From IMG/VR virus record IMGVR_UViG_3300045988_126190, positions 5,268-69,267 of that record: a DNA stretch of 64,000 bases; one strand, 5' to 3'. The notes beneath the pieces are model-generated. The model was not told the origin of the DNA. It made no database searches and saw nothing but the letters and a program-made list of their open reading frames with translations. Positions 4,761 through 47,812 of this stretch are shown here, piece after piece (the first letter of the stretch is position 1; each line of letters starts with the position of its first letter). Both the position numbers and the translations under genes were made by a program. This DNA is from a virus.

Positions 4761-5822
4761 GCCGTGGACTGTACCGCAAACCGGGCAAAACCACTCCCGC
4801 ACAGAAAGGTCTTTCGTTCCGGGCCACTGAGCACCACATACAGAGCAAAGCTGGCTGGACGGAAAGAAGCGGTCTATCGTGACCACCTGTTTTCCATACC
4901 ACTTTGACTTGTATTCCAACTGCCGCCGGAACTCACCCCACGATGCATCAGAGATGGACTTGGCCAGCCTGTGGTTCTTGACCATGTTCTTGGGCGCCAA
5001 GTCCTCAATGCAGATCAGATCGTACTGGCGCATAAGGTCAGTGGACAACTTGTGGAGCATATCCTGTCGCTGGTTGGCGACGTGCTCATGCAGTCTTGCC
5101 AACTGAAGCCTTGCTTTCTCCCGGCGGCTGCTCCCCTTTGTTTTTCGGGAGAGTTGCCGTTGGAGTTTTGCAAGTTTCTTCTGGCTCTTGGATAGATACT
5201 TATGGTTCGGATACTCCACACCATCGGAGGTGATTGCAAATGCTTTCAGCCCCATGTCGATGCCGACCACCGCCCCTGTAGATGGCAGCGGCTCCATATC
5301 AACGTCTGTACAGCACAGGGCTACGAAGTATTTTCCGCTTGGGGTCTGGCTGACGGTTGCGGACAGAACACGCCCCTCTACAGGCTTGCTGATCCGGCAT
5401 TTTACCTTTCCCAGTTTGGGGAGCTGTACAGAGCCTTCCAATACTTTGATATTTGCGCCAACGCACTTGCTCTTATAGCTTTGTCGATGGTTTCGCTTGC
5501 TCTTGAACTTTGGGTATCCGGGTTTCCCGCCTTTTTTGACCCGCCGAAAGAAGTTCTGATAGGCTGTATCCAAATCCCGCAGAGAGGATTGCAGGGCGGT
5601 TGCATCAACTTCCCGCAGCCAGATGGTTTCCTCCTGTTTCTTCAGAGACGTCAGGTCTTTGTCTTGCGTGAATCGTGTGGGAGATTTTCCTGTTTCCCTG
5701 TATGCCTCTATTCGCTGTGCAAGATAGTGATTCCAAACAAAACGACAGCAGCCAAATGTCCGGTGTATCTGTTGCGCTTGTGCGATATTGGGATAGATGC
5801 GGAATTTGTAGCTATATTCCAT
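4704..5822 (-). CDS. tnpB: TnpB RNA-guided nuclease
   Basis: 372 aa with RuvC motifs GIDMG, IEDL, RDINAA and zinc finger CSVCG...CPVCG. Confidence 0.9.
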
Positions 5823-9262: not shown

Positions 9263-9669
9263 GCTAACGCACCCCCTGCCATGTGCAACCCCGGCAGAAC
9301 ATCCATCTTGTAGCCGCTTTTGACGAAACGCCTTGCCAGTTCCGTGTCGATTCCGTTCCACAACCACTCATAAATAACGGTGATATCAGTCTCGGAAAAC
9401 GATGTGCCGCAAAATTCGTTAATCCCACGAAGATGATACTCATGTACCTCTTTGTTTCTCCACTCCACGCTGTAATGGCAAGATTCACACGCCTCCCGTG
9501 ATAACCACTCAAGGCACTTTACCCTCACATCTTCTTCCGTTTCGCACTTTCCCAATGCAAAATAGGAATTCACACGCGGGTTCGGGTCGGCAACAAACTC
9601 GATTTGGCCGTTAATGATTGCTTTTGGGAATGCGTGGAACAACTTTTTCAATGTACTCTGGTTAACCAT
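9259..9669 (-). CDS. hypothetical phage protein
   Basis: GGAGGAG RBS. 136 aa. Confidence 0.6.
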   Translation of the reverse strand: MVNQSTLKKLFHAFPKAIINGQIEFVADPNPRVNSYFALGKCETEEDVRVKCLEWLSREACESCHYSVEWRNKEVHEYHLRGINEFCGTSFSETDITVIYEWLWNGIDTELARRFVKSGYKMDVLPGLHMAGGALA

Positions 9670-26289: not shown

Positions 26290-26868
26290 ATGAACGCGTA
26301 TCAAGAGCTGGCGCCACGCTTCGACACCTACCGCGATACCATCAAGGCTGCAAAAGCAAAGAAGGGGTATTCCCTATCAACGCTCGCCGAAGAATCCGGC
26401 GTTGCATATTCGGCAGTCAGCCGCCTATGCGACGGAACACAGTCTGAACCGAAACTGTTTAACGCCGTCGCACTTTGCAAGGTGCTGGGCATATCCATTG
26501 ACGACACCTTCGGGCTGAGATCGCCGACGGAGGAAAACACAGAGCAATTGCGGGAAAGAATCCACTGGCTGGAGCTGAAAAATGCTGAGCTTCGCGGAGA
26601 AAACGAGCGGTTAGAAGCAACTAACCAGATTCTGCAAAATGGCATCGACGCACGAAGGCCGTTGATCTATATTTTGCTGAGCTTGTGCGTCGCGCTGGCG
26701 TGTGGCATTGGTGTCTATCTTGTAATTGACGCGAATATCCGCGACGCAGGGCTGATACAGTTCGGCAATTTTTCACCCGGCGCGTGGGCTTTTGCCGCTG
26801 TGATCGTCGGGACACTGGCATCCGTGGTCATTGCCACACTGAAAATTACCAAAAAGCAAAGAAAATAG
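26290..26868 (+). CDS. membrane-anchored XRE-family regulator
   Basis: N-terminal HTH, a coiled coil and two C-terminal transmembrane segments. Confidence 0.65.
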   Translation: MNAYQELAPRFDTYRDTIKAAKAKKGYSLSTLAEESGVAYSAVSRLCDGTQSEPKLFNAVALCKVLGISIDDTFGLRSPTEENTEQLRERIHWLELKNAELRGENERLEATNQILQNGIDARRPLIYILLSLCVALACGIGVYLVIDANIRDAGLIQFGNFSPGAWAFAAVIVGTLASVVIATLKITKKQRK

Positions 26869-26891
26869 CGAACAAAAGCGAGGCATTCCCT

Positions 26892-27917
26892 ATGTATATC
26901 CCAGAACCAAAGAAAAATAAAGACGGAACATGGAGCATTCAGCTCAGAATCAACAAGCAATCCATCATGGTAAACGCTGATTCCGCCAAGGAATGCAAGC
27001 GCCGCGCGGCTATCGTCAAGGCAGAGGCGCAGAACGCCGCTAAACCAATAAAAAAGAGCGAGCTGACACTCACTCAGGCAATCGACGAATACATCAATAC
27101 GCGCCAAAATTCGCTGTCTCCGTCCACAATACGCGGCTACCGCATCATTCAAAGGACACGCTTTCAGTCTACGATGCCGCGCAGAATTTCAACGATCCAG
27201 CAAAACGAATGGAGAAAAATCATTGACGAGGAGCTTGGCGTCGCCTCGAAAAAGACTGTGAAAAATTCTTGGGCGTTCGTAAAATCCGTACTCAAGGAAA
27301 ACGGCATCACGCCGGACGATAGCGTGAAGGTCGCGCCGCAGCGAAAGAAAAGCGATGCGGTTTGGCTGGAACCGGACGAAATCAAGAAGTTTGTTGCCGC
27401 CGCTGCCGATAATTCTCTGTGCATACCAATGTTGCTTGCGCTGATGGGAATGCGCTTATCTGAAATAAAAGCCCTTCGGTGGGAAAAGATCGACAGAGAT
27501 GCGGAGATCATCCGAACCAACGGTGCCGTGGTGCGAAATGAGGATGAGAAGTACGTATATAAAAGCGAACAGAAAAATATTTCGTCTGACCGCGCGGTCC
27601 CGCTGCTGATGCCGGAGCTTCGTGCGGCGATTCGGCGCGAGTGGAAGTCGGAAGGAGATGTTCTTACCGTTGCAGAAAGTACGCTCAGACGGACGGTCGC
27701 CAGAGTGTGCGAGAAGGCGGGCGTGAAACGAGTAACCATTCATCAGCTTCGCCATAGCTTCGCCTCCCTATCCGCGCATTTGCGAATTCCAAAGGAAATC
27801 TCCAGAGAGATCGGCGGATGGAGCAATGATAAAATCATGGACGAGATTTACACCCACATAGCGCAATCGGATATCGAGCGATACAAAAATGAGCTTTGGA
27901 AGTTCTACAATGAGTAA
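26892..27917 (+). CDS. int: tyrosine integrase
   Basis: RLSE...HQLRHSFASL...GGWSNDKIMDEIYTH catalytic motifs. Adjacent to the att site. Confidence 0.9.
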   Translation: MYIPEPKKNKDGTWSIQLRINKQSIMVNADSAKECKRRAAIVKAEAQNAAKPIKKSELTLTQAIDEYINTRQNSLSPSTIRGYRIIQRTRFQSTMPRRISTIQQNEWRKIIDEELGVASKKTVKNSWAFVKSVLKENGITPDDSVKVAPQRKKSDAVWLEPDEIKKFVAAAADNSLCIPMLLALMGMRLSEIKALRWEKIDRDAEIIRTNGAVVRNEDEKYVYKSEQKNISSDRAVPLLMPELRAAIRREWKSEGDVLTVAESTLRRTVARVCEKAGVKRVTIHQLRHSFASLSAHLRIPKEISREIGGWSNDKIMDEIYTHIAQSDIERYKNELWKFYNE

Positions 27918-28115: not shown

Positions 28116-28152
28116 AGCCTCGAAACACTGATGTTTCAAGGCTTTTCTTTTT
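28116..28152 (+). terminator. intrinsic terminator abutting att core
   Basis: AAGCCTCGAAACA/TGTTTCAAGGCTT stem followed by TTTTCTTTTT. Confidence 0.6.
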
Positions 28153-28179
28153 GGCGGAGAGGGCGGGATTCGAACCCGA
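28153..28179 (-). other. att core: 27-nt tRNA 3'-end fragment (T arm + acceptor + CCA, Ser-like)
   Basis: Reverse complement is CGGGTTCGAATCCCGCCCTCTCCGCCA. No matching 5' acceptor strand or D/anticodon arms lie beyond 28180. Confidence 0.7.
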
Positions 28180-37867: not shown

Positions 37868-39685
37868 ATGCCGCGCAAGGGAACCGTCTGGACGGCGGGG
37901 GCCGGTTGGGTGCGGTCGCAGGAGTACGAGGCAGCACAGTATGACAGTCTCGGTGACGGATGGGGCTTTCTGATCTCCTTTTGGCGCTGGTTCCCGGATA
38001 TGCTTTGTGACCTTTCTCGCAGTGACGAAGCAGACTATGAGCTGGCGCTATTACAGCGTGTATTCATGCGAGCCAAGGCACGGTATCAATACTGCGACAT
38101 CACCGCCTGCCGTGGCGCGACCAAATCGTTCTGTTCCATTCTGGAAGAGGCCTGCGAGGGTCTGTTGTGGCCGGGCATTACGACGGCATATTTCGGGCCG
38201 TCCCTGCGGCAGACCGCAAAGATCGGCGCAGACACATGGGAAACCATTCAGGAAAACTATCCGGCGCTGGCCGCACACTATAACGTCGAGGTCAAGGGCG
38301 GCGACCGCTTTAAGATCACGACGGGATACGGAAGCAGCTTTTCCATTGACGCATTTCGCGGCGCAAACCTGTGTAAGGTCGTGGCCGAGGAATATGCGCA
38401 GGAGGAGGCACCCCCGTTTGACATTGAAGATTATAAGCGCGTCGTGCTGCCCGCAGTTCGTATTGAGTACCGCGTAAAGGGCAAGCGCGACCCGACCTAT
38501 GTCAGATTTAAGCAGCACTCCATTACCTCCGCATCGCGGCGGCAGAACCACGCCTATGAAACACGGTGCCGCCACATTCGGATGATGGCGAGAGGCGAAA
38601 GCGCCTTTGTAATGGACGTTTCCTATGAGGTAATCCTGCTGATGCAGATGCGCCCCGTGATGTGGGCAGAAACGCTCAAGAGCGAGCTTAGCCCCGACGA
38701 ATGGGCGCGAGAGATGGAGAGCCTTTACACCGGCAGCGACAAGAATCCGGTCGTTCGCGACAGCGTTCTGACGGAATCGCGGTGTATGCTGCTGATGGAG
38801 GAGCATCACTGCTGCAAGGACCACGCGAACAAGGTCAAGCCGGAGGATGTGAAATACATCATCGGCTATGACGTTTCTTATGCAGACGGCGCGATCAACG
38901 CAAAATGCGCCTGTGCTGTAATCAAACTGACGAAGCAAACCAATTGGCTCAAGCGAGATCGATATCTGAAGCAGGTCGTCTGGCTGTCCGGTTGGGAGCC
39001 GGAGGAGCCGAGGGCGCAGGCGGCACGGCTGAAAACCATTTGGAACCGCTACTGCTTTGAGGGCAGCGAGACCTACATTGCCATCGACGCATGGCAGTAC
39101 GGCACCGCCGTGTTGCAGGCACTGATGGGCGACTTGGAGGACGGGCTGCCTCCCTTGTGCAGCCACGACCATTCCTTCTGCCCGGAGCTGGAGCGTGACG
39201 GCGCGATTCCGGTCGTGTTCCCCGTAAAGGCGGGCGGCGTCGGCGTGACTGACCCCGACAGCGAAATGCTGCGCTATGCCGAGGTGCAGTTTGAAAACCG
39301 CAACGTACAGCTTTTGACCTCGAACTGGGGCGAGGGCTTAGATGCCTATAAGACCTATCACCGCATCAAGGACGACGAGTTAGACCACCTGATCTACGCT
39401 CCGTACAAGGAAACGAACGTCCTGATTGGGCAGATGCAGAACCTGAGGAAGGTTCCTTCCGGCGCAGGGATGGCAGAGAAGCGAATCTCGTCCCATATCC
39501 AGCGCGACGACTGGTCCGCACTGAAATATGCCCTGCGCGTGGCGCAGAAACTGGAAACGAAATATCTGCTCAAGACCTATCAGAAGTCGGCGTGGGACGC
39601 GGAATACCAGAAGGGTTCCAGTTTCTACGCATCCGGCGGCGGCGTCCGCACGGTGGGACGGTTTGCAGGAAGGAAATACACATGA
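37868..39685 (+). CDS. terL: terminase large subunit
   Basis: 605 aa. Size, position and ATPase/nuclease-like layout fit. Confidence 0.8.
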   Translation: MPRKGTVWTAGAGWVRSQEYEAAQYDSLGDGWGFLISFWRWFPDMLCDLSRSDEADYELALLQRVFMRAKARYQYCDITACRGATKSFCSILEEACEGLLWPGITTAYFGPSLRQTAKIGADTWETIQENYPALAAHYNVEVKGGDRFKITTGYGSSFSIDAFRGANLCKVVAEEYAQEEAPPFDIEDYKRVVLPAVRIEYRVKGKRDPTYVRFKQHSITSASRRQNHAYETRCRHIRMMARGESAFVMDVSYEVILLMQMRPVMWAETLKSELSPDEWAREMESLYTGSDKNPVVRDSVLTESRCMLLMEEHHCCKDHANKVKPEDVKYIIGYDVSYADGAINAKCACAVIKLTKQTNWLKRDRYLKQVVWLSGWEPEEPRAQAARLKTIWNRYCFEGSETYIAIDAWQYGTAVLQALMGDLEDGLPPLCSHDHSFCPELERDGAIPVVFPVKAGGVGVTDPDSEMLRYAEVQFENRNVQLLTSNWGEGLDAYKTYHRIKDDELDHLIYAPYKETNVLIGQMQNLRKVPSGAGMAEKRISSHIQRDDWSALKYALRVAQKLETKYLLKTYQKSAWDAEYQKGSSFYASGGGVRTVGRFAGRKYT

Positions 39686-40044
39686 TGAAAAGCACGGACA
39701 AATATGGGCTTTACGTCGTGAGGCCAGAGGACATCGGCGAAAACGAGAAATATTATCTGATTACGGCGACGTACTGCCTGCTATACACCAAGAAAAAGCC
39801 GAAGGACGGGTTTCCCGTGAAAAACCTGACGGCGCTGCCGTCGCTGGCGAAGCAGTGGTTAAACGGGGCCATTGAGAGCCTACGGCAGGAATATTTGATG
39901 GAGAATCAGCAACAGCTTTTGGCCAAGGGCAAGGCGTTCAGCGACGCGCTTCGGCAGGAGCTTGAGGCTGAGAGAATCCGCATCAAGGAAAGCGAGATGA
40001 CAAAGGACGATGCAGCAACAGCAGAAGAAACCAAGAGCGAATAA
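39682..40044 (+). CDS. hypothetical protein
   Basis: ATGATG overlap with the terL stop. Confidence 0.55.
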   Translation: MMKSTDKYGLYVVRPEDIGENEKYYLITATYCLLYTKKKPKDGFPVKNLTALPSLAKQWLNGAIESLRQEYLMENQQQLLAKGKAFSDALRQELEAERIRIKESEMTKDDAATAEETKSE

Positions 40045-41806
40045 TGCGTCGTCGTATGCCACCTACGACCAGTATTTCGGAGCGCTGCGGCAGTTAGCCT
40101 CCGAATACGGCGACGTACCGAGCGACGGTTTTTGGAGCGCGTGGACACGGGCTTCGATGTCAACGAATCCCTTTATCAACAACAGCCGCGTCAAGCATAT
40201 CTCCTCCTTCCCTGCCGACGTTACCAAGCCACAGATTGTGGAAATGCTCAAGGCACCGGAGGACAACGAGCAGGCGCTTCGCGAAACGGCGGCGGGCTTG
40301 GAATGGGGTGCCTTCCCCTTCCGGAAAATCCGCATGACCTATCAAGGGGTCAACACCTACCACTATTACCACTACCCCGCGAACCTCACAAAGGAGGACG
40401 CGAAATCCGATACGCTGCGGCGCGAGGGTGTGCTGCTGGACAAGTTCAACCGGCGCTTTCAGCCGGACGCGCTGGCGCACCAAATCGTCGGGCAGGCGTG
40501 GCAGATGGGCAAGGTCGCCTATTATCCGCGCTATTCGCTGGATAAGCCGCACAATCGGGTGAATTTCGCGTTTGCACAGCAGATTCCCTCGGACTGGATC
40601 AAAATCGTCGGCTTTAACTCCGAGAGCAAATACACGGTCATGTTTAACATGATGTACCTGTTGCAGCCGGGGTCTGACTGGCGGCAGTTCGGCGATTTGC
40701 TTGCGCCGTATCTGGACGATTTTGACAGCGTGCTCGACCCCTTCGGGACGACAGGCAAACCGGACGGTTTGGGGAAAAAGTTCGTCTACGCCTCAAAAAA
40801 CACGGTGCAGAGCGCAGACGGCAGAGCCTTCCGCATCCAGCCGGACAAATTAAAGGCGAACGCAGCGGGAAATCCGCAGATATACAACCAAAACGGGCAG
40901 TGGGCGTATTACGTCACCCTCCCTGTGGAGGACGTTTGGGTGTTCGAGATCGACGACACGACGAGAGCCGTTGCGCCGATGAGCACGGGACTGTTCATCA
41001 GTTTTGACCAGATTTCCCAAATTGAGGACGTGGCGCTTGCCGTGATGCAGAATCCGCTTGTGTCGATTGCGTTCGGCGAGATGCCGTACTACGCAGAGCG
41101 CAAGACGGAAACCAGCGACCCCATTAAGCTTTCCCCGACCGGACGCGCCTACTACGTGGAGCTGTGGAATCAGATGATTGCGGCGGCAAATGCGGGCGGC
41201 ATTGCGTTCTTCCCCGCACCGATGGAAAAGCTCCATTTGGAAACGCTGCCGGAGGCGACCGGCTCAAGCGACATGACCTCGAAAAACTACGCCTACGCCG
41301 TGATGAAATCCGGCATGAGCGGTCTTATCCCCATTAACAGCGACCCGAGAGCCGGTGCGGTGGAGATCAGCGCGAAGCTGGAGGAGGCGGTTTGCTTCTG
41401 CATCTACCGCCAGATGGAACGGATGATGGAATCCGTTTACCGCAGAATGGGCCTGCGGTACGAATGGCGGTTTACCATGTTCGGCGGCTTCGTTTCGGAC
41501 AAGGCCGACCTCGAAAACGCACGAAAGGGCTTGCAGATCGGAATGCTCTCCGAAACGCTCAAGTACCTTGCGCTGCGCGGGATGAGTCTGTGGGACGATA
41601 TGAGCGTGTCGCACTTCATCAATGAGAGCGGCGTGCTTGACCTGAGAATCCCACCTATCACGAGCTACACGGCGACGCAGGGCGAAAGCGGCTTGCCGCC
41701 GAAGGCTCCGAAAGACCCGGACAACGAGGGCGGCAGACCGACAAAGGACATTGACGCGGCGCTGGAAAGCGGCTCTGAGGCGCAGGAAAGCGATTTGGAC
41801 GGGTGA
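40010..41806 (+). CDS. portal protein
   Basis: 598 aa, downstream of terL. Confidence 0.7.
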   Translation: MQQQQKKPRANNASSYATYDQYFGALRQLASEYGDVPSDGFWSAWTRASMSTNPFINNSRVKHISSFPADVTKPQIVEMLKAPEDNEQALRETAAGLEWGAFPFRKIRMTYQGVNTYHYYHYPANLTKEDAKSDTLRREGVLLDKFNRRFQPDALAHQIVGQAWQMGKVAYYPRYSLDKPHNRVNFAFAQQIPSDWIKIVGFNSESKYTVMFNMMYLLQPGSDWRQFGDLLAPYLDDFDSVLDPFGTTGKPDGLGKKFVYASKNTVQSADGRAFRIQPDKLKANAAGNPQIYNQNGQWAYYVTLPVEDVWVFEIDDTTRAVAPMSTGLFISFDQISQIEDVALAVMQNPLVSIAFGEMPYYAERKTETSDPIKLSPTGRAYYVELWNQMIAAANAGGIAFFPAPMEKLHLETLPEATGSSDMTSKNYAYAVMKSGMSGLIPINSDPRAGAVEISAKLEEAVCFCIYRQMERMMESVYRRMGLRYEWRFTMFGGFVSDKADLENARKGLQIGMLSETLKYLALRGMSLWDDMSVSHFINESGVLDLRIPPITSYTATQGESGLPPKAPKDPDNEGGRPTKDIDAALESGSEAQESDLDG

Positions 41807-41810
41807 TGCT

Positions 41811-41990
41811 ATGGTAACGACCGAGGACATCAAAATCATCAACGACGCTCTTAAAAAGGGCTTTGACGTGAGAATTCAGAACACCCCGGACGGCTACCGC
41901 ATTGTCGCGGACAAGGTGAGCGTCCTGAAGCGCGGGCATTCCGCGAAAAAGCCCAGCGCAATGATGGGTTATTCCGACAAGAGGCAATAA
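41811..41990 (+). CDS. small hypothetical protein
   Basis: 59 aa. Confidence 0.5.
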   Translation: MVTTEDIKIINDALKKGFDVRIQNTPDGYRIVADKVSVLKRGHSAKKPSAMMGYSDKRQ

Positions 41991-41995
41991 AAAAC

Positions 41996-42012
41996 CGGCG
42001 GGTTTCCCGCCG
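41996..42012 (+). other. GC hairpin without U-tract
   Basis: CGGCGGG-UUU-CCCGCCG, starting 6 nt after the stop codon. Confidence 0.55.
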
Positions 42013-42016
42013 ATAT

Positions 42017-42083
42017 GCCGCGCCCTAGGTGGCTGGGAGGGCTGAATGACCCTCAATGATCGGTTCAATTCCGGTGCGCGGTA
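42017..42083 (+). ncRNA. mini tRNA-like element 1 (67 nt)
   Basis: Acceptor GCCGCGC/GCGCGGU. T arm AUCGG-UUCAAUU-CCGGU. Stem GAGGG/CCCUC with the 8-nt loop CUGAAUGA. 4-bp D stem with GUGG loop. No CCA. Confidence 0.5.
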
Positions 42084-42209
42084 TTTGATTTTCGTTGCAT
42101 TGGCCTCCTTTCTGTTAACGCCCCACGACGGATGGCGCTTTTGCGAGCTGCGAGACGGCCGAGCGTCTGGGATGAAACAATCCGTGCCGGTGAAAATCCG
42201 GCGACATAT

Positions 42210-42262
42210 GGGGCGCAAAGGGAGCGGCGACGTTGCCGGCGGTTCGAGTCCGTATGCCCCTT
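42210..42262 (+). ncRNA. T-loop-containing minihelix followed by U-tract
   Basis: GGGGCG/UGCCCC closing stem. GCGG-UUCGAGU-CCGU arm. Inner CGGC/GCCG hairpin, then UUUU. Confidence 0.3.
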
Positions 42263-42444
42263 TTGATCGTCCCCTGCCGCCGGGGTCTCACAAATAGGCG
42301 GCTTGCAAAAATCTTCTAAGGGGTGTCCATTTCGCGCGCCCCTTGCACACTGAACAACGTTATTCTTGCGATTACTCCTACAAATTCGTCACCCTGCACA
42401 AATCTAGCTCCTGAATTTCGTACATTCTGCTGTTTCAATTATCC

Positions 42445-42472
42445 TTGACTTTTGGCGGACATAAGTTATAAT
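42445..42472 (+). promoter_or_regulatory. promoter of RHH cassette C
   Basis: TTGACT-16-TATAAT with the inverted repeat CATAAGT/ACTTATG flanking the -10 box. Confidence 0.55.
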
Positions 42473-42508
42473 AGACTTATGGCAGACAAAAGTTGGAGGT
42501 GAGGTACA

Positions 42509-42679
42509 TTGTCGCCAAGAACCGGCAGACCAACAGAAAACCCGAAGCAAGAGCGCATTACCGTCCGATTGGACAAGGAATCCGCTGAAATCCTGCACCT
42601 GTACTGCGAGAAAAAGAACGTAGACAGAGCAGAGGCGATTCGCCGAGGGGTTAAGAAGTTGGCAGACGAAATAAAATAG
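42509..42679 (+). CDS. ribbon-helix-helix (Arc-like) regulator (56 aa, not in track)
   Basis: TTG start after GGAGGTGAGG. Own translation: SPRTGRPTENPK...VRLDKE...EAIRRGVKKL. Confidence 0.6.
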   Translation: MSPRTGRPTENPKQERITVRLDKESAEILHLYCEKKNVDRAEAIRRGVKKLADEIK

Positions 42680-42740
42680 AGTGTTGGCTGCCTCTCACAA
42701 CAAACCAACACCCTATCAGACAGGACAGGGAAACCTATCC
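42672..42740 (-). ncRNA. putative sar-like antisense RNA of cassette C
   Basis: Antisense promoter at 42747-42775 plus hairpin GTGTTGG/CCAACAC with a T-run on the minus strand. Confidence 0.4.
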
Positions 42741-42746
42741 GAAATC

Positions 42747-42775
42747 ATTATACATCGGAGCGGCTTCCTTGTCAA
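42747..42775 (-). promoter_or_regulatory. antisense consensus promoter
   Basis: Minus-strand TTGACA-17-TATAAT. Confidence 0.6.
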
Positions 42776-42799
42776 ACATTGTTTTGAAAAGGAGCTATT

Positions 42800-43552
42800 A
42801 TGAATAACGAGATTCAGATTTTCAGCAATGAAGAATTCGGAGAAATCCGCACTTTGGCTATCAACGATGAGCCGTGGCTCGTCGGAAAGGATGTAGCCGA
42901 AATCCTTGGATATGCAAACCCTAACGAAGCAATATCGGACCATGTAGATGACGAGGACAAACTCAATAGCAAAACGCTATCGAGTTTTTCTGCAAATCTT
43001 GGACAGCGCGGTGGCTGGCTCATTAACGAAAGCGGGTTATACTCGCTTATCATGAGTTCCAAGCTTCCGGCGGCAAAGAAGTTCAAACGCTGGGTCACAT
43101 CCGAAGTTCTCCCCTCTATCCGCAAGAACGGCGGGTATATCGCGGGTCAGGAAAGCATGACACCGGCGGAGCTGATGGCTTCGGCGCTGCTGATGGCGCA
43201 GAAAACGCTTGCAGAGCGCGAGGCGAGAATTGCCGACCTGACGGTACAGAATCAAATCATGCAGCCGAAAGCGGAATACTTCGATGAGCTGTGCGACAGA
43301 GAAACCTTGACCGGCATTTACGAGACGGCGAAGGAGCTGGGCGTAGCGCCGAGGAAGTTCACAGCGGATTTGGTCAAGCACAGATACCTGTACCGTGGGA
43401 AAAAGGGACAGCTCCTGCCATGCGAGAGCAAGAACGACGGGCTGTTTGTATTAAAAGAAACCTTCAACAACCAAACCAAATGGAGCGGCACACAGACGCT
43501 CATTACCGTAAAAGGGCGCGAACTGTTCCGCATGATGCGCCTCGGCGCTTGA
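42800..43552 (+). CDS. antirepressor (Bro-N + KilAC/ANT-like)
   Basis: MNNEIQIFSNEEFGEIRT, RWVTSEVLPSIRKNGGY. The leader is near-identical to that of 2959. Confidence 0.85.
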   Translation: MNNEIQIFSNEEFGEIRTLAINDEPWLVGKDVAEILGYANPNEAISDHVDDEDKLNSKTLSSFSANLGQRGGWLINESGLYSLIMSSKLPAAKKFKRWVTSEVLPSIRKNGGYIAGQESMTPAELMASALLMAQKTLAEREARIADLTVQNQIMQPKAEYFDELCDRETLTGIYETAKELGVAPRKFTADLVKHRYLYRGKKGQLLPCESKNDGLFVLKETFNNQTKWSGTQTLITVKGRELFRMMRLGA

Positions 43553-43709: not shown

Positions 43710-43792
43710 CAGCCGCGAATGGGCGGCTGTGAAGAGCAAAGAGGCTCATTGACACAGGAGACTGTGTTAATGGGTCTCTTTTTTGTTGTTTT
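43710..43792 (+). terminator. hairpin + GAGCAAAGAGGCTC + long terminator (copy 1)
   Basis: CAGCCGC/GCGGCTG hairpin, the 14-mer at 43734-43747, AGAGGCTCATT/AATGGGTCTCT stem, then a T-run. Confidence 0.6.
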
Positions 43793-43825: not shown

Positions 43826-44365
43826 ATGGCTTTAAGAGATTACGAGGCGCGATGGCAATTTCTGCGGCAACCGGCGCGGGAGGCTACCGAGGCCTACGAA
43901 ACCGGCACACGGTGGTTCGACCAGATGAAGGAGCTGCTGCTCATTGAGGGCGGGCTGGTGCATCTTTCGGAGATGTTCCACCGTACAGCACACTGGTTCC
44001 CGACGCAGTTTGACGTGATCGGAGACATTCTGCACCAGCGGCACGTGATTCAGGACTACGGCGCGACACCGGAATTTCCGGGCGTCGGCTTGTCGGACGG
44101 CGGCGAAATCGGCACTTGCTTTGAAATGGCAATGCGGGTGTTTGAGGAGATCGAGCGGAAGCTCAAGACGCTGATTCGCCTCTGCGACGAGCAGAACGCT
44201 TGGGCGATTGCGCGGCAGTTTGAAAATCTGCAAATCGCCAACAGCCAGCGGCACGAGCGGTTTCTGTACGCATGGAAGATGTACGAGGAAGCCGAGAGCG
44301 CCAGCTCGTTTGACAATTGGGTGCTGCACCTGCTGGACGAGGAAGAAACGGAGGCTGATGCGTAA
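43826..44365 (+). CDS. hypothetical helical protein
   Basis: 179-aa ORF. Confidence 0.6.
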   Translation: MALRDYEARWQFLRQPAREATEAYETGTRWFDQMKELLLIEGGLVHLSEMFHRTAHWFPTQFDVIGDILHQRHVIQDYGATPEFPGVGLSDGGEIGTCFEMAMRVFEEIERKLKTLIRLCDEQNAWAIARQFENLQIANSQRHERFLYAWKMYEEAESASSFDNWVLHLLDEEETEADA

Positions 44366-45792
44366 TGCCCTTTAAGAAACCGGCCGGAGGCGACCGCTAC
44401 CGGAGCTTTTGCGGCGAATTTCGATTCCTTTCGACAGACGATGCGTTCAATTTCCACGTGGAAATCTGGCTTTTGAACGATCTCGTCAACCGGAACAACT
44501 GGAAATACATCAATCTGGAACAGCACAGAGCACTGTTTGCGGGTACGCCGATCCTGATTGCCTATACCAACGGCGGCAAGGGCATCGGCGACGGACACAA
44601 TTTCCGCATGGAAACCGACCCGCGAACGGGAGAGGAAGCGCCGTCGTTTACCGGCGCGACCGCAGAACGAATTGTTGGCGCTCTTTCCGATGACCAAGCC
44701 GATGTACGGCTTGAGCAGAGGGACGGACATACATGGATTGTCGGCAGAGGCCGCCTGTGGAAATGGTACGCCAAGGAGCTGGTGGAAAAGATTGAGCGTG
44801 ACGCGCGACAGGGGCGCAGCATGAGCATCTCCATCGAAACCTTGGTGACGAAAGCCCACATGGAGGGCGACGTCGAGGTAGAGGAGGAATACAAAATCCT
44901 CGGCACAACCATTTTAGGCGACCATGTTACTCCGGCAGTCGCAGGCGCTCACATAGCCGCCTTGCAGGAGATGAAGCAGTTCAATGAGTTAAAGGTCCGG
45001 GCTGCATCCTACAACGGCAAACCCCAAGCAAACAGCAAGCCTAACAATCAACATCAAGATCGAAAAGGAGTGAAAACCTTGAATCTTTTCAGTAAGAACC
45101 AGCTCAAGGAGCTTCAGAGCCGCTTTGCCGAGCACACCGTTTTGGCAGCGGGCAGCGACGACAATGGCATTCATGTTTGCATGATTGACAAGGACGGCGC
45201 TCCCATTGTTTACACGATGTCGGGCATGGAGGACACCATTGTCCCCGAGGGCTTCCACAGAGACTCCGTGAGCGCGGAATTTTCTTGCGGTGTTCGTGTA
45301 GATGCCTTTGACGCAATCGAACGGGCGCTTTCGCCCATGACCGCCGAGAACCGCGTCCTGCGCGAGCAGAATGAGAAGCTGACGGCTGACCTTGCCGCCG
45401 CCAACAACAGCGTCAAGGCGATGCAGGAGGCCGAGGACAAGCGCCGCAAGGCCGCCGCAAAGGCCGCTGCCGAAGCGTTCCTCGAAAAGCTGAACGAAAA
45501 CCGCGACGAGATCGACCGCATCAGCGTTGAGATCATCAAGCCCGTGCTGGAACGTGCCGAGGCAGGCGGTTTCAACGAAATCTGCAACGAGGCCGGCGAA
45601 TGGTGCGGCGACCGCGCTGCCGAGGATGCCGTTTGCGAGCGCGCCATGCGCCAGCAGATGGAGATCGACAAGCGCAACGCCGAGCAGACCAGAAACGCGC
45701 AGAAGAAAACCTACGCGTTCGAGGTTGCCGGTAAGGACGGCACGAATTCCGGCTCGGAAATCGAAAACATCTACAACAACCTCATGAAATAA
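44365..45792 (+). CDS. probable prohead protease/scaffold fusion
   Basis: Position between portal and capsid. C-terminal coiled coil. Functional call is weak. Confidence 0.45.
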   Translation: MPFKKPAGGDRYRSFCGEFRFLSTDDAFNFHVEIWLLNDLVNRNNWKYINLEQHRALFAGTPILIAYTNGGKGIGDGHNFRMETDPRTGEEAPSFTGATAERIVGALSDDQADVRLEQRDGHTWIVGRGRLWKWYAKELVEKIERDARQGRSMSISIETLVTKAHMEGDVEVEEEYKILGTTILGDHVTPAVAGAHIAALQEMKQFNELKVRAASYNGKPQANSKPNNQHQDRKGVKTLNLFSKNQLKELQSRFAEHTVLAAGSDDNGIHVCMIDKDGAPIVYTMSGMEDTIVPEGFHRDSVSAEFSCGVRVDAFDAIERALSPMTAENRVLREQNEKLTADLAAANNSVKAMQEAEDKRRKAAAKAAAEAFLEKLNENRDEIDRISVEIIKPVLERAEAGGFNEICNEAGEWCGDRAAEDAVCERAMRQQMEIDKRNAEQTRNAQKKTYAFEVAGKDGTNSGSEIENIYNNLMK

Positions 45793-45810: not shown

Positions 45811-46452
45811 ATGGCTTCTATCGCTAAAACCGCATTTGAGGTTTCCGTGAGCAACATCACGAGAAACAACATCCAGAATGTCCCCGGTTATTTCGGCAGC
45901 GGAACCGGAACTTCCTTCGTTCCCGACATCTGCCCGGCCGGCTTCCTCTGCACCCGCTCCGAGCTGGCTGCGAACGAGGGCTACGAGGGCAAGGGCGCGA
46001 ACGGCGCTGACATTCTCAACGGCAACACGTGGCGTTTTATCGCGGCGGCGGCCGGCACCTCCGGCGACCGTCTGGGCGACCACACCGGCATTTATGCCTT
46101 TAATTCCTACAACGCACAGCAGGGCACCATCGGCGGCAATACCTACTATGCCGGTGCGAACACCCTCGGCCTTGAGCTTCCCGCAGGCGAGCGCGGCGAC
46201 TTTACCGAGCTGATTGTCGGCGAGCAGTACACGTGGGGCGTTGGCGACTTCTCGACCGCTCCCACGGACAGCACCTTCCTGTATGCGACCATCGTCAACG
46301 GTCTGCTTGTGGCCTCCAAGACCGCACCCGCAGACGGCAGCGGCGTGTACCTGAAAATCCTCCGCAGCAAGCCTTTCACGAAGGGCGCTCGCTACGCCGG
46401 ATTTAACGGCTATGTCTGCGAGGTTTGCCGCGCGGCGGCAGCCAAGTCCTGA
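45811..46452 (+). CDS. head-associated protein (decoration?)
   Basis: 213 aa, immediately upstream of the capsid gene. Confidence 0.5.
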   Translation: MASIAKTAFEVSVSNITRNNIQNVPGYFGSGTGTSFVPDICPAGFLCTRSELAANEGYEGKGANGADILNGNTWRFIAAAAGTSGDRLGDHTGIYAFNSYNAQQGTIGGNTYYAGANTLGLELPAGERGDFTELIVGEQYTWGVGDFSTAPTDSTFLYATIVNGLLVASKTAPADGSGVYLKILRSKPFTKGARYAGFNGYVCEVCRAAAAKS

Positions 46453-46474: not shown

Positions 46475-47701
46475 ATGTTGAAGCTCAACAGCCTTGACAC
46501 CAATGTTTTTATCTATCACAGCAACAACGACGAGACCATCGGCACCGGCGCGAACAAAATCAGCCGCGATGAGCTGATTGCCTCCGGCCGTCTGTGCGCT
46601 ACCGAATATCTCGGCAAGCAGCTCGACCCGAAGGGCTTCGTTTCCCGCCTTGCGCAGTTTGGCGGCAGCTACGACGTTGCGGCCCGCAAGCACATGGAGA
46701 AGAAGCTCCTGTTCTGTGCGACCAAGGCCTACGCGGCGGTCGGCAAGCCCGCTCCGGAGAACGTGGAAGCGGTCAAGAGCGACATGAACCTCTGGAAAGA
46801 CCCGATTTTCCTGCGCACGATGTCCTACATTGACGCAGAGGTCGTATCTCCCCTTCTGTACAGCGTCATTTCCGACCTCGGCGGCCAGATGCTGAATCTG
46901 CGCAGCGCTCCGGTTGGCCGCACGGTTGAAATCAACGTGCAGTCCAACGAGGCGTTCCTGTGGGAGGACAGCGCTCCCGGCTCCGGCCACAGCACCACCA
47001 AGAACTACCTGTACGGCGACACCATCACCCTCAACCCGAAGATGTACGTCTGCAACGGCACCATCAAGTGGTTCCAGCTCGTCGCTTCGGACAACGGCAT
47101 GGACGCCGGCTGGTACTACACCGCCATTATCCGTGGCCTGTGGAGCAAGATCACCGCGCTTTACACCAAGGCGCTGCTGAACGCGGCGACTAACACCATG
47201 TACGTTCCCTCCTACCTGACCTTCGACTCCTACACCTCCGCCAACTGGGCGTCCGCGACCACTGCCGCTGCGGTTGCCAACGGCGTTCGCCGCGAGCAGC
47301 TGATGGCGTTCGGCAACTACGCAAGCCTCCAGAAGGTGCTGCCCTCCGGGACCGCCTCTGACGCTGCACTGACCTATCAGCTCGGCGAGGAATGGATGCG
47401 CAACGGCTTCGTGAGCATGGTTGGCCGCGTGCCGCTGTTCGAGATCATGCCTGCCATGGTTCCCGGCACGGTGAACACCACCGGCACGATGATCGACCTC
47501 GACAAGCATCTGTTCATTACCGCACGTGTCGGCGACGCGATGGCTCCCATCTACGGCGCGATTGCCGAGGGCTGGCCGGTCGCGATGGAGTACACCCCGT
47601 CCGAGACCGCAGACTTCGAGATCAGCATCAACATGAGCACGCTCATGGATTTCAAGCCGGTGTTTGCCTCCAAGGTCGCCGTTATCCAGAACGTTATCTA
47701 A
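46475..47701 (+). CDS. major capsid protein
   Basis: 408 aa. Position, and followed by a stabilising hairpin. Confidence 0.6.
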   Translation: MLKLNSLDTNVFIYHSNNDETIGTGANKISRDELIASGRLCATEYLGKQLDPKGFVSRLAQFGGSYDVAARKHMEKKLLFCATKAYAAVGKPAPENVEAVKSDMNLWKDPIFLRTMSYIDAEVVSPLLYSVISDLGGQMLNLRSAPVGRTVEINVQSNEAFLWEDSAPGSGHSTTKNYLYGDTITLNPKMYVCNGTIKWFQLVASDNGMDAGWYYTAIIRGLWSKITALYTKALLNAATNTMYVPSYLTFDSYTSANWASATTAAAVANGVRREQLMAFGNYASLQKVLPSGTASDAALTYQLGEEWMRNGFVSMVGRVPLFEIMPAMVPGTVNTTGTMIDLDKHLFITARVGDAMAPIYGAIAEGWPVAMEYTPSETADFEISINMSTLMDFKPVFASKVAVIQNVI

Positions 47702-47715
47702 TCCAAGCCTTTTTC

Positions 47716-47737
47716 GGAGGGCGGGAAACCGCCCTCC
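47716..47737 (+). other. 9-bp GC hairpin with GAAA tetraloop, no U-tract
   Basis: GGAGGGCGG-GAAA-CCGCCCUCC. Confidence 0.6.
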
Positions 47738-47744
47738 CCTATCC

Positions 47745-47812
47745 GCCGCTCTGGGATGGTCTCCTTTCGGCAAGTACAGAAAGGCACGACGGTTCGACTC
47801 CGTCGAGCGGCA
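47745..47812 (+). ncRNA. mini tRNA-like element 2 (68 nt)
   Basis: Acceptor GCCGCUC/GAGCGGC. Perfect T arm GACGG-UUCGACU-CCGUC. Stem CUUUC/GAAAG with a 10-nt loop. Mini D arm. Confidence 0.5.

Follow-up and report, generated by a model that had tools for sequence, protein, structure and literature searches.

The stretch of DNA analysed here, a 64,000-nucleotide (nt) portion of a viral genome that we refer to as the window (positions 5,268 to 69,267 of IMG/VR virus record IMGVR_UViG_3300045988_126190), carries in its late operon three units in which a GC hairpin is followed, after a short leader, by a compact transfer RNA (tRNA)-like element. One unit lies behind a 59-amino-acid (59-aa) gene that follows the portal gene, a second behind the gene for the major capsid protein, and a third a short distance downstream of the first. 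All three elements lie on the strand of the late genes, they retain the acceptor stem and T arm of a tRNA, and in related phages the same slots hold a graded series that runs from genuine tRNAs through tRNA-like elements to bare minihelices. We read the elements as tRNA-derived processing signals within a late polycistronic transcript that ribonuclease P (RNase P), and possibly RNase Z, would use as punctuation, and on the comparative sequence evidence we put the probability of this reading at about 55%.

Anatomy of the hairpin-linked elements

Hairpin 1 begins 5 nt past the stop codon of the 59-aa gene, and element 1 starts 27 nt after the same codon. The acceptor stem of element 1 pairs GCCGCGC with GCGCGGU over 7 base pairs (bp), the D stem has 4 bp and closes a loop of 4 nt, the anticodon-like stem GAGGG/CCCUC has 5 bp and carries an 8-nt loop, CUGAAUGA, the variable region is 4 nt long, and the T arm is AUCGG-UUCAAUU-CCGGU with a 5-bp stem. 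This cloverleaf is the minimum-free-energy fold of 42017-42083, with a z score of -1.85 for the element alone and -2.66 when the hairpin is included. A preliminary description of this DNA had pointed to a 7-bp GC hairpin without a U tract after the small gene (41996-42012) and, behind it, to a 7-bp acceptor, a UUCAAUU T arm, a reduced D arm, an 8-nt anticodon-like loop and no encoded CCA, all of which is borne out base for base, and it was also right that a hairpin-plus-tRNA-like unit recurs after the capsid gene (47716-47737 and 47745-47811). It had overlooked the third unit (42186-42260), as well as the terminator-like signal that hairpin 1 and a run of six T residues make on the minus strand.

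In unit 2, hairpin 2 begins 15 nt and element 2 starts 44 nt after the stop codon of the capsid gene. In element 2, GCCGCUC pairs with GAGCGGC in the acceptor, a 10-nt loop sits on a 6-bp stem, and the T arm is GACGG-UUCGACU-CCGUC. A longer-range pairing between a T run before hairpin 2 and an A run after element 2 was considered and set aside, as covariation for it is absent in relatives. Element 3 was found under relaxed criteria, which gave nothing on the minus strand. On the plus strand a T run follows none of the three hairpins, so that none has the form of an intrinsic terminator there.

Within a single window the geometry of acceptor and T arm alone is not significant, with 2 instances found, 0.69 expected and 15% of shuffles reaching 2. 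The T-arm motif GGTTCRANTCC occurs four times in the window against 0.36 expected, the fourth copy being an integration-site remnant. When a GC hairpin is required to end 4-9 nt 5′ of the element, there are two strict matches in the window and none in 300 dinucleotide-preserving shuffles, and both matches lie on the coding strand in intergenic gaps.

As in canonical tRNAs, the 7-bp acceptor of the elements is directly stacked on a 5-bp T stem whose 7-nt loop has the form UUCRANY, but where a canonical tRNA has a 7-nt anticodon loop, element 1 has 8 nt and element 2 has 10 nt, and no recognisable tRNA identity elements were found in them. At gathering scores Rfam gives no match in the whole 64 kb; its best weak matches, obtained in small-window searches, are to the tRNA-Sec model at 18.1 bits for element 1, 12.8 for element 3 and 15.5 for element 2 against a gathering score of 47, and they align the acceptor and T arm only. 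ARAGORN reports no tRNA at elements 1 and 3, and labels element 2 "tRNA-???" with a 2-nt anticodon. None of the three elements appears to be a usable tRNA, and the earlier statement that element 1 is not a standard tRNA agrees with the ARAGORN and Rfam checks, both of which reject it.

For RNase P, the relevant features are a coaxial acceptor/T stack of about 12 bp and a T loop, with the D and anticodon arms dispensable (PMC11143913; PMC4919913). Elements 1 and 2 provide 7 + 5 bp and a T loop, and element 3 provides 6 + 4 bp. In known substrates the D loop is dispensable and the T loop is needed (PMC4919913), replacement of the T loop lowers the efficiency of cleavage and shifts the cut (PMC11143913; PMC4919913), and leaders with U(-1)/A(-2) are common and bind well (PMC11143913). 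The sequence AUAU stands immediately 5′ of both G42017 and G42210. As a class assignment made from sequence alone, the elements would qualify as tRNA-like RNase P substrates in every feature that sequence can address.

Several other classes of RNA were considered. Transfer-messenger RNA is rejected because ARAGORN finds none, and instead of the G3·U70 pair of that class, elements 1 and 2 have C-G at position 3:70 and element 3 has G-C. A C4-type antisense RNA is likewise rejected, there being no Rfam match even at E = 10, and the persistence of elements 1 and 3 in relatives without antirepressor (ant) cargo also counts against it; sequences complementary to the loops of elements 1 and 2 show no enrichment in the window, and the idea of an antisense target was dropped. 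An open reading frame (ORF) on the plus strand at 42046-42297 begins within the variable loop and was rejected as coding.

The spacer between elements 1 and 3 contains an anti-Shine-Dalgarno-like sequence, CCTCCTTTCT (42104-42113), and processing of both flanking elements would set it free in an RNA about 125 nt long with hairpin 3 at its end. Both a structure and a target were looked for in the spacer (42084-42185), and neither was found. A single large structured RNA over 42083-42212 was rejected on an unfavourable covariation term in the consensus fold. Opposite 42104-42113, an ORF on the minus strand that starts from a ribosome-binding-site-like AGGAGG was also rejected as coding; it is not conserved, because it spans 11 codons in the window and about 45 in the relative L001.

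Conservation in close and distant relatives

Pairing of the acceptor and T stems is complete (100%) in the seven homologues of element 1. In L082 a C-G pair of the acceptor has become U-A by a double change; in L110 a C-G pair of the T stem has likewise become U-A, and for this second change the window itself has the U·G intermediate. The GAUAU leader is invariant in the seven sequences, and hairpin 1 is kept in six close relatives with substitutions confined to its loop. The middle of the element behaves differently. One pair of the D stem is broken in four of six sequences, and in L110, the capsid protein of which is 97% identical to that of the window, the 8-nt loop reads UUAUAGGA rather than CUGAAUGA over an unchanged stem. 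The loops (42041-42048 in the window and 3330-3337 in L110) differ at 5 of 8 positions between identical flanking stems, a local divergence far above that of the rest of the element. In L082 (89% capsid identity), the entire D/anticodon domain has been swapped for an unrelated 6-bp hairpin. We also observed in L082 a motif, ATTATTCGCTATTCACT, upstream of both tRNA-like elements, the one behind the small gene and the one behind the capsid gene (at about 5415-5440 and 9310-9335). It may represent a promoter or a repeated sequence, and it is absent from the window.

The acceptor of element 2 is kept, its T stem changes from A-U to G-C in L110, L111 and L082, and its middle is rewritten in L082; its leader ends in UAUCC in the window and reads GAUAU or GAUAC in close relatives. 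In relatives, element 3 is a 92-nt form like a class II tRNA, with a long variable arm and without a D stem, which is shortened in the window and in L108, and the 92-nt form has compensatory pairs at two positions in the acceptor and four in the central stem. In the long form (L001 6201-6292; L082 5658-5753) the loop CAAAGAG is constant while its 9-bp stem is altered at four pairs, which hints at a sequence-specific role for the loop. The preliminary description had made compensatory covariation in homologous phages a touchstone for its proposal, and because such covariation is present, that objection falls away. From these alignments, what selection keeps appears to be the 12-bp stack of acceptor and T stems, the T-loop cap and a short single-stranded leader ending in U(-1). 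An exact-string search of IMG/VR with the T arm plus acceptor of elements 1 and 2 returned the same phage only, together with two chance matches inside a coding gene.

To extend the comparison, we gathered about 180 loci whose products are related to the capsid protein, the most distant at 33% identity, from viral, genome and metagenome collections together with the encoding contigs, read the stretch behind each capsid stop codon, and analysed 119 distinct post-capsid sequences. A GC hairpin follows the capsid stop codon in 107 of them, and a T run follows the hairpin in 3 of the 107. A supposed dichotomy between hairpins with a U tract and hairpins with a tRNA-like element is not upheld, because nearly all post-capsid hairpins are without a U tract. 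A structure scan found 26 sequences, belonging to 13 lineages, in which a linker of 8-41 nt leads from the 5′ strand of a 7-bp acceptor to a 5-bp T stem that is capped by a 7-nt loop and directly abuts the 3′ strand of the acceptor; the acceptor sequences are unrelated among the 13 lineages. Shuffled sequences gave about one match and reversed sequences two, and in the reverse-complement control 25 matches collapse to four lineages, one of which is a single coding-region coincidence common to a large clade.

All 26 loops start with U(U/G)C(A/G)A, although loop sequence was outside the search criteria, and across the 13 lineages U54, C56 and R57 are each present in 13 and A58 in 12. The leader has the consensus A(-4) U(-3) A(-2) U(-1), with U(-1) and A(-2) each in 9 of 13 lineages and G at position +1 in 10 of 13, and the gap between hairpin and element is 4-7 nt in 20 of the 23 cases where it could be measured. 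Over all loci, there are 54 distinct elements on the late-operon strand against 11 on the other, and the 11 look like coding-region coincidences.

Taken together, the occupants of the post-capsid slot form a graded series. At one end are genuine tRNAs, namely a tRNA-Thr(UGU) with CCA that follows the hairpin in L083 and a tRNA-Trp and tRNA-Asn in L060 and L074; tRNA-like elements of 65-67 nt occur in the lineage of the window and in L082 and L117; and at the other end are bare acceptor/T-arm minihelices of 39-46 nt (L062, L072, L069, L142, L152-157, L165/166, L174, L178, L179 and L183). The post-portal slot is alike, with L021 having five tRNAs interspersed with two mini elements.

Two further arrangements were noted. 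In the L025-L081 clade (34-36% capsid identity), a hairpin, GAUAU and a 33-nt two-tier hairpin, GGYGC-GAAG-YCYGC-AUGAGG-GCRGA-GCRCC, stand about 40-75 nt past the capsid stop codon; the two-tier hairpin covaries between U-A and C-G with some C·A exceptions, and it has the topology of the minihelix without the T-loop motif. L002, with a portal protein 55% identical to that of the window, is without element 1 and has at 305-379 a 75-nt acceptor/T-arm element with a 7-bp central hairpin, which lies upstream of the terminase genes and would be a third slot for such elements.

Candidate processing signals and competing explanations

The conserved acceptor/T-arm core is the classical minimal RNase P substrate, and a GC hairpin without a U tract that regularly stands 4-7 nt upstream, where the portal-proximal and the capsid cistron end, is in keeping with a module for processing. 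In the proposed mechanism, the 7-bp acceptor stem would stack on the 5-bp T stem and its T-loop cap to give the minimal shape that bacterial RNase P measures, and the host enzyme would cleave between U(-1) and G(+1), which for element 1 would place the cut between U42016 and G42017. The upstream messenger RNA (mRNA), encoding the portal and small gene or the major capsid protein, would then end 4-7 nt past a strong GC hairpin, and 3′-exonucleases would remove the leader bases and stall at the hairpin, so that the upstream mRNA would be stabilised. Because the hairpin has no U tract, RNA polymerase would read on into the downstream late genes, which would give more capsid mRNA while the operon is not ended. 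RNase Z may cut past the discriminator as well, releasing a small tRNA-like RNA. The preliminary description had raised RNase P/Z punctuation with a hairpin-protected 3′ end as one option, and the comparative data now favour it, in that D/anticodon parts are lost or replaced, the hairpin 4-7 nt upstream and A(-2)U(-1) are kept, and tRNAs occupy the same slots; the cleavage itself we infer.

Several points weigh against this reading. RNase P is proposed as the enzyme from shape alone, and other partners reading this part of tRNA, such as RNase Z, EF-Tu, TruB/TrmA, the CCA-adding enzyme or a toxin targeting the acceptor end, would be just as compatible with conservation of acceptor and T arm. 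With a hairpin just 4 nt upstream, the RNase P protein might be impeded in binding the leader. Close homologues are few (seven for element 1), so that the covariation within the lineage rests on a handful of events, and the acceptor of element 1 opens with a G·A pair in L082. Across lineages, the pairing is partly circular, because the elements were found by a structure-based scan, and the features independent of that scan are the loop motif, leader, strand and spacing only. Finally, the module is far from universal: in most relatives there is just the hairpin, or else a smaller two-tier hairpin that lacks a T loop, and in some there is nothing at all. It is therefore dispensable or replaceable, and with so many relatives having the hairpin only or a two-tier hairpin, the tRNA-like part is not essential to the family.

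The genuine tRNAs in the same slots of relatives raise the question of whether the elements are simply former phage tRNAs that have become non-functional relics nearing deletion, with the hairpins working independently. The clearly degenerate D arm and anticodon loop, the shortening of element 3 from its 92-nt form in the window and the many relatives in which the hairpin alone suffices would all suit such decay. Decay should strike all stems alike, however, whereas here compensatory changes preserve full pairing in the acceptor and T stems even as the middle is lost or replaced by other sequence. In addition, 13 lineages have arrived at one reduced acceptor/T-arm form that has its T-loop motif intact, stands at a fixed distance from the hairpin and keeps a conserved leader. 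Both points leave decay a possible but fairly unlikely explanation. A further suggestion is that the hairpin is the functional part, used by another nuclease or process (cleavage by RNase Y or RNase III, for instance, pausing, or attenuation without a U tract), and the tRNA-like fold incidental. The occurrence of the hairpin after the capsid stop codon in 107 of the 119 distinct relatives, with or without a tRNA-like element, speaks for this, as does the large clade with merely a two-tier hairpin after GAUAU; since it leaves unexplained the T-loop motif, the 12-bp stack, the compensatory changes and the fixed 4-7-nt spacing, we regard it as distinctly unlikely. A working non-canonical tRNA, such as the quadruplet-type decoder suggested earlier on account of the cloverleaf fold with its 8-nt loop, is extremely improbable, given that the loop differs at most of its positions in L110, the domain is absent from L082, the tRNA-clan models and ARAGORN give the poor results described above, CCA is not encoded and identity elements are not recognisable.

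The core would be constrained in the same manner by whatever factor recognises the acceptor and T arm, and it is conceivable that the elements are excised to act in trans, as decoys or sponges for antiphage toxins that modify or cleave the acceptor end, the CCA-adding enzyme or modification enzymes. Late, capsid-linked expression would yield a high copy number, CCA is encoded after the minihelix in a few relatives (L183 and L186/L028), and antiphage toxins that read the acceptor stem exist, such as the toxSAS FaRel2 (PMC11559606). On the other side, acceptor sequences differ freely between lineages, so that there is no mimicry of one particular tRNA identity, G3·U70 or another identity set is absent, no defence or anti-defence gene is consistently adjacent, and a decoy role does not explain why the elements are so tightly linked to a hairpin in front of them and to the ends of genes with high expression. 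We judge it unlikely that their main role is in trans. Of the decoy for tRNA-targeting defences put forward in the preliminary description, the part that concerns anticodon nucleases is improbable because the anticodon-like loops are not conserved, while a decoy for acceptor-end readers is possible. The two ideas could also be combined, in that the elements may form an undescribed class of 39-92-nt mini-tRNA-like RNAs in phages of gut Clostridia that host tRNA-processing enzymes excise from late mRNAs, both punctuating the operon and accumulating as stable minihelices that act in trans, for instance by soaking up toxins or enzymes that read the acceptor end; this is speculative and, in our estimate, rather unlikely.

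A role at the level of DNA was also considered, in which the tRNA-like sequences serve as recombination or integration points for the exchange of cargo genes (morons). Variable cargo begins 0-3 nt from the 3′ end of element 3 in L110 (at about 3590) and L111 (at about 1415), so that element 3 marks a mosaic joint; in the window the corresponding position is 42260 onward, and in L107 (at about 1290), where the cargo is different again, it starts about 70 nt further from element 3 than in L110 and L111. The phage itself, moreover, most likely integrates at a tRNA 3′ end. Yet the post-capsid elements have no neighbouring cargo, the bias toward the transcribed strand (54 against 11) and the covariation of the stems indicate RNA, and mosaic joints at feature boundaries are common in phages regardless, all of which makes a role in DNA exchange very improbable.

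Genomic setting, comparable systems and significance

The window carries a temperate siphovirus-like genome with an uncultured gut Clostridiales/Oscillospiraceae host. The closest genome record to this phage is the metagenome-assembled genome MGYG-HGUT-02255, and Flavonifractor and Flintibacter genomes hold more distant relatives. No close phage that is cultured or annotated was found; a DNA search returned matches to the antirepressor gene only, and a protein search returned one unannotated record at 28% identity. The genes flanking the elements, those of the cargo island included, are all on the plus strand (Table 1).

Table 1. Features of the late region of the window (positions counted from its first nucleotide)
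Feature	Coordinates	Strand	Description
Large terminase	37868-39685	+	
Portal	40010-41806	+	PHROG matches
59-aa gene	41811-41990	+	TAA stop codon 41988-41990
Hairpin 1, minus-strand reading	41994-42014	-	9 pairs, then tail TTTTTATTGC (T6); scores as intrinsic terminator
Hairpin 1	41996-42012	+	CGGCGGG-UUU-CCCGCCG; 7 G/C pairs, no U tract
Leader AUAU	42013-42016	+	Separates hairpin 1 from element 1
Element 1	42017-42083	+	66-nt tRNA-like cloverleaf (42017-42082) and discriminator A42083; CCA not encoded
Spacer, elements 1 to 3	42084-42185	+	Sequence conserved in seven phages; anti-Shine-Dalgarno-like CCUCCUUUCU, 42104-42113
Hairpin 3	42186-42202	+	GCCGG-UGAAAAU-CCGGC; 5 of 5 pairs invariant in 7 sequences
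Leader GACAUAU	42203-42209	+	Between hairpin 3 and element 3
Element 3	42210-42260	+	51-nt short tRNA-like element; acceptor GGGGCG(C)/(A)UGCCCC, central hairpin, T arm GCGG-UUCGAGU-CCGU
Ribbon-helix-helix gene	42509-42679		Cargo island
Ant/Bro-N antirepressor	42800-43552		Cargo island
Structural genes	43826-44365, 44365-45792, 45811-46452	+	Beyond cargo
Major capsid protein	46475-47701	+	Assigned via homologues, one titled "Major capsid protein" in UniRef
Hairpin 2	47716-47737	+	GGAGGGCGG-GAAA-CCGCCCUCC; 9 bp, no U tract
Leader CCUAUCC	47738-47744	+	Between hairpin 2 and element 2
Element 2	47745-47812	+	67-nt tRNA-like element (47745-47811) and discriminator A; CCA not encoded

Read on the minus strand, hairpin 1 may have a second job as a terminator that halts leftward or convergent transcription arriving from the variable cargo. 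The run of A residues that this requires is kept in six close relatives, all of which have variable cargo to the right of element 3, and in L107 and L111 the cargo next to element 3 starts with a leftward gene; L082 has neither the A run nor cargo, though the sample is small.

In the window, the cargo island (42445-43552) resembles the immI region of P22. It has a near-perfect promoter on the plus strand at 42445-42472, and between the ribbon-helix-helix gene and the antirepressor there is a perfect promoter on the minus strand (42775-42747) that is directed toward a small hairpin resembling a terminator (42730-42711), an arrangement that would suit a sar-like antisense RNA. The island is ended by a strong plus-strand terminator, a 20-bp hairpin with a T tract at 43738-43781 that lies just 5′ of the gene at 43826-44365; it is kept in L110, which is without the ant cargo, and it is the source of a spurious weak match to the Rfam family mir-7445. 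Further upstream in the window, a tyrosine integrase gene (Pfam Phage_integrase; 26784-27917, plus strand) adjoins an isolated 3′ end of a tRNA gene, GGTTCGAATCCCGCCCTCTCCGCCA (28152-28176, minus strand), which is followed by a terminator-like hairpin, the full tRNA being absent there. The integrase and the tRNA 3′ fragment most likely mark either the attachment site of the phage or the end of a prophage within a tRNA gene.

In function, the nearest comparators are found in organelles, in the eukaryotic nucleus and in bacterial co-transcripts of mRNA and tRNA. The t-elements of plant mitochondria are non-canonical tRNA-like folds within longer transcripts at mRNA ends, recognised by the motif GGTTCRANYCC (Forner et al. 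2007, PMC1920247), and they are taken to direct cuts by RNase P and RNase Z that are followed by exonuclease trimming to give mRNA 3′ ends, a job that genuine tRNAs perform at other plant mitochondrial genes (PMC1920247). The phage elements are likewise embedded tRNA-like folds with the T-arm motif at mRNA ends. They differ in that t-elements are organellar and have no regular upstream GC hairpin at a fixed 4-7 nt, and in that the phage elements are reduced further, to acceptor/T-arm minihelices of 39 nt. In MALAT1 and MEN-beta, a cut by RNase P at the 5′ end of a tRNA-like element, which in MALAT1 is mascRNA, gives the upstream RNA a 3′ end that is mature and stabilised (PMC8457004). Here too a protective RNA structure lies directly upstream of the tRNA-like element and there is no conventional terminator, but these are eukaryotic nuclear long noncoding RNAs protected by a triple helix, whereas the phage has a plain GC hairpin, and their transcripts end at that point, whereas the phage operon continues downstream. 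Like modules of the t-element and mascRNA type, the phage units place a tRNA-like fold on the same strand directly behind the end of an RNA; in the phage, elements 1 and 2 start 27 and 44 nt past the stop codons of the small gene and the capsid gene, each 4-7 nt past a GC hairpin.

Among bacteria, an acceptor stem plus a T stem and its loop suffice for correct cleavage by RNase P, and natural substrates other than tRNA include the M3 RNA of phage phi80, the C4 RNA of P1 and P7, and operon mRNAs that are cut intercistronically (PMC11143913). The model minihelices share the acceptor/T-stem/T-loop core with the phage elements, though they are synthetic and usually carry a 3′-RCCA; C4 RNA acts as a regulator by antisense, and the phage elements give no match to its Rfam family. 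None of these model or natural substrates is known as a hairpin-linked module that recurs after capsid genes. In bacterial co-transcripts of mRNA and tRNA such as secG-leuU of E. coli, RNase P excises the tRNA and so separates the flanking mRNAs (PMC2241853). Mitochondrial tRNA punctuation works in the same way on polycistronic RNAs, as we propose here, but both systems use functional tRNAs, whereas the phage elements keep the processing half and lose the decoding half. A further comparison is offered by phage T7, in which host RNase III cuts the late polycistron at intergenic structures to yield hairpin-ended, stabilised mRNAs. Its signal is a long imperfect duplex rather than a tRNA mimic with a separate hairpin, and the enzyme is a different one. 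Our search of the literature, which was incomplete in coverage and does not prove novelty, turned up nothing on hairpin-linked modules of this kind, whether tRNA-like or minihelix, in the late operons of phages.

If RNase P does cut at these elements, phages of a major group of gut bacteria would tune the amounts of capsid mRNA and downstream late mRNA by way of host tRNA processing, and bacterial viruses would have their own version of what mitochondrial tRNA punctuation, the t-elements of plants and the MALAT1/mascRNA module do elsewhere. The elements would show that evolution has pared tRNA genes down, in nature, to the "minihelix" otherwise used as a synthetic RNase P substrate, and they would account for many of the odd tRNA calls in phage annotation. 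They would also offer compact and portable processing signals for operon engineering in Firmicutes.

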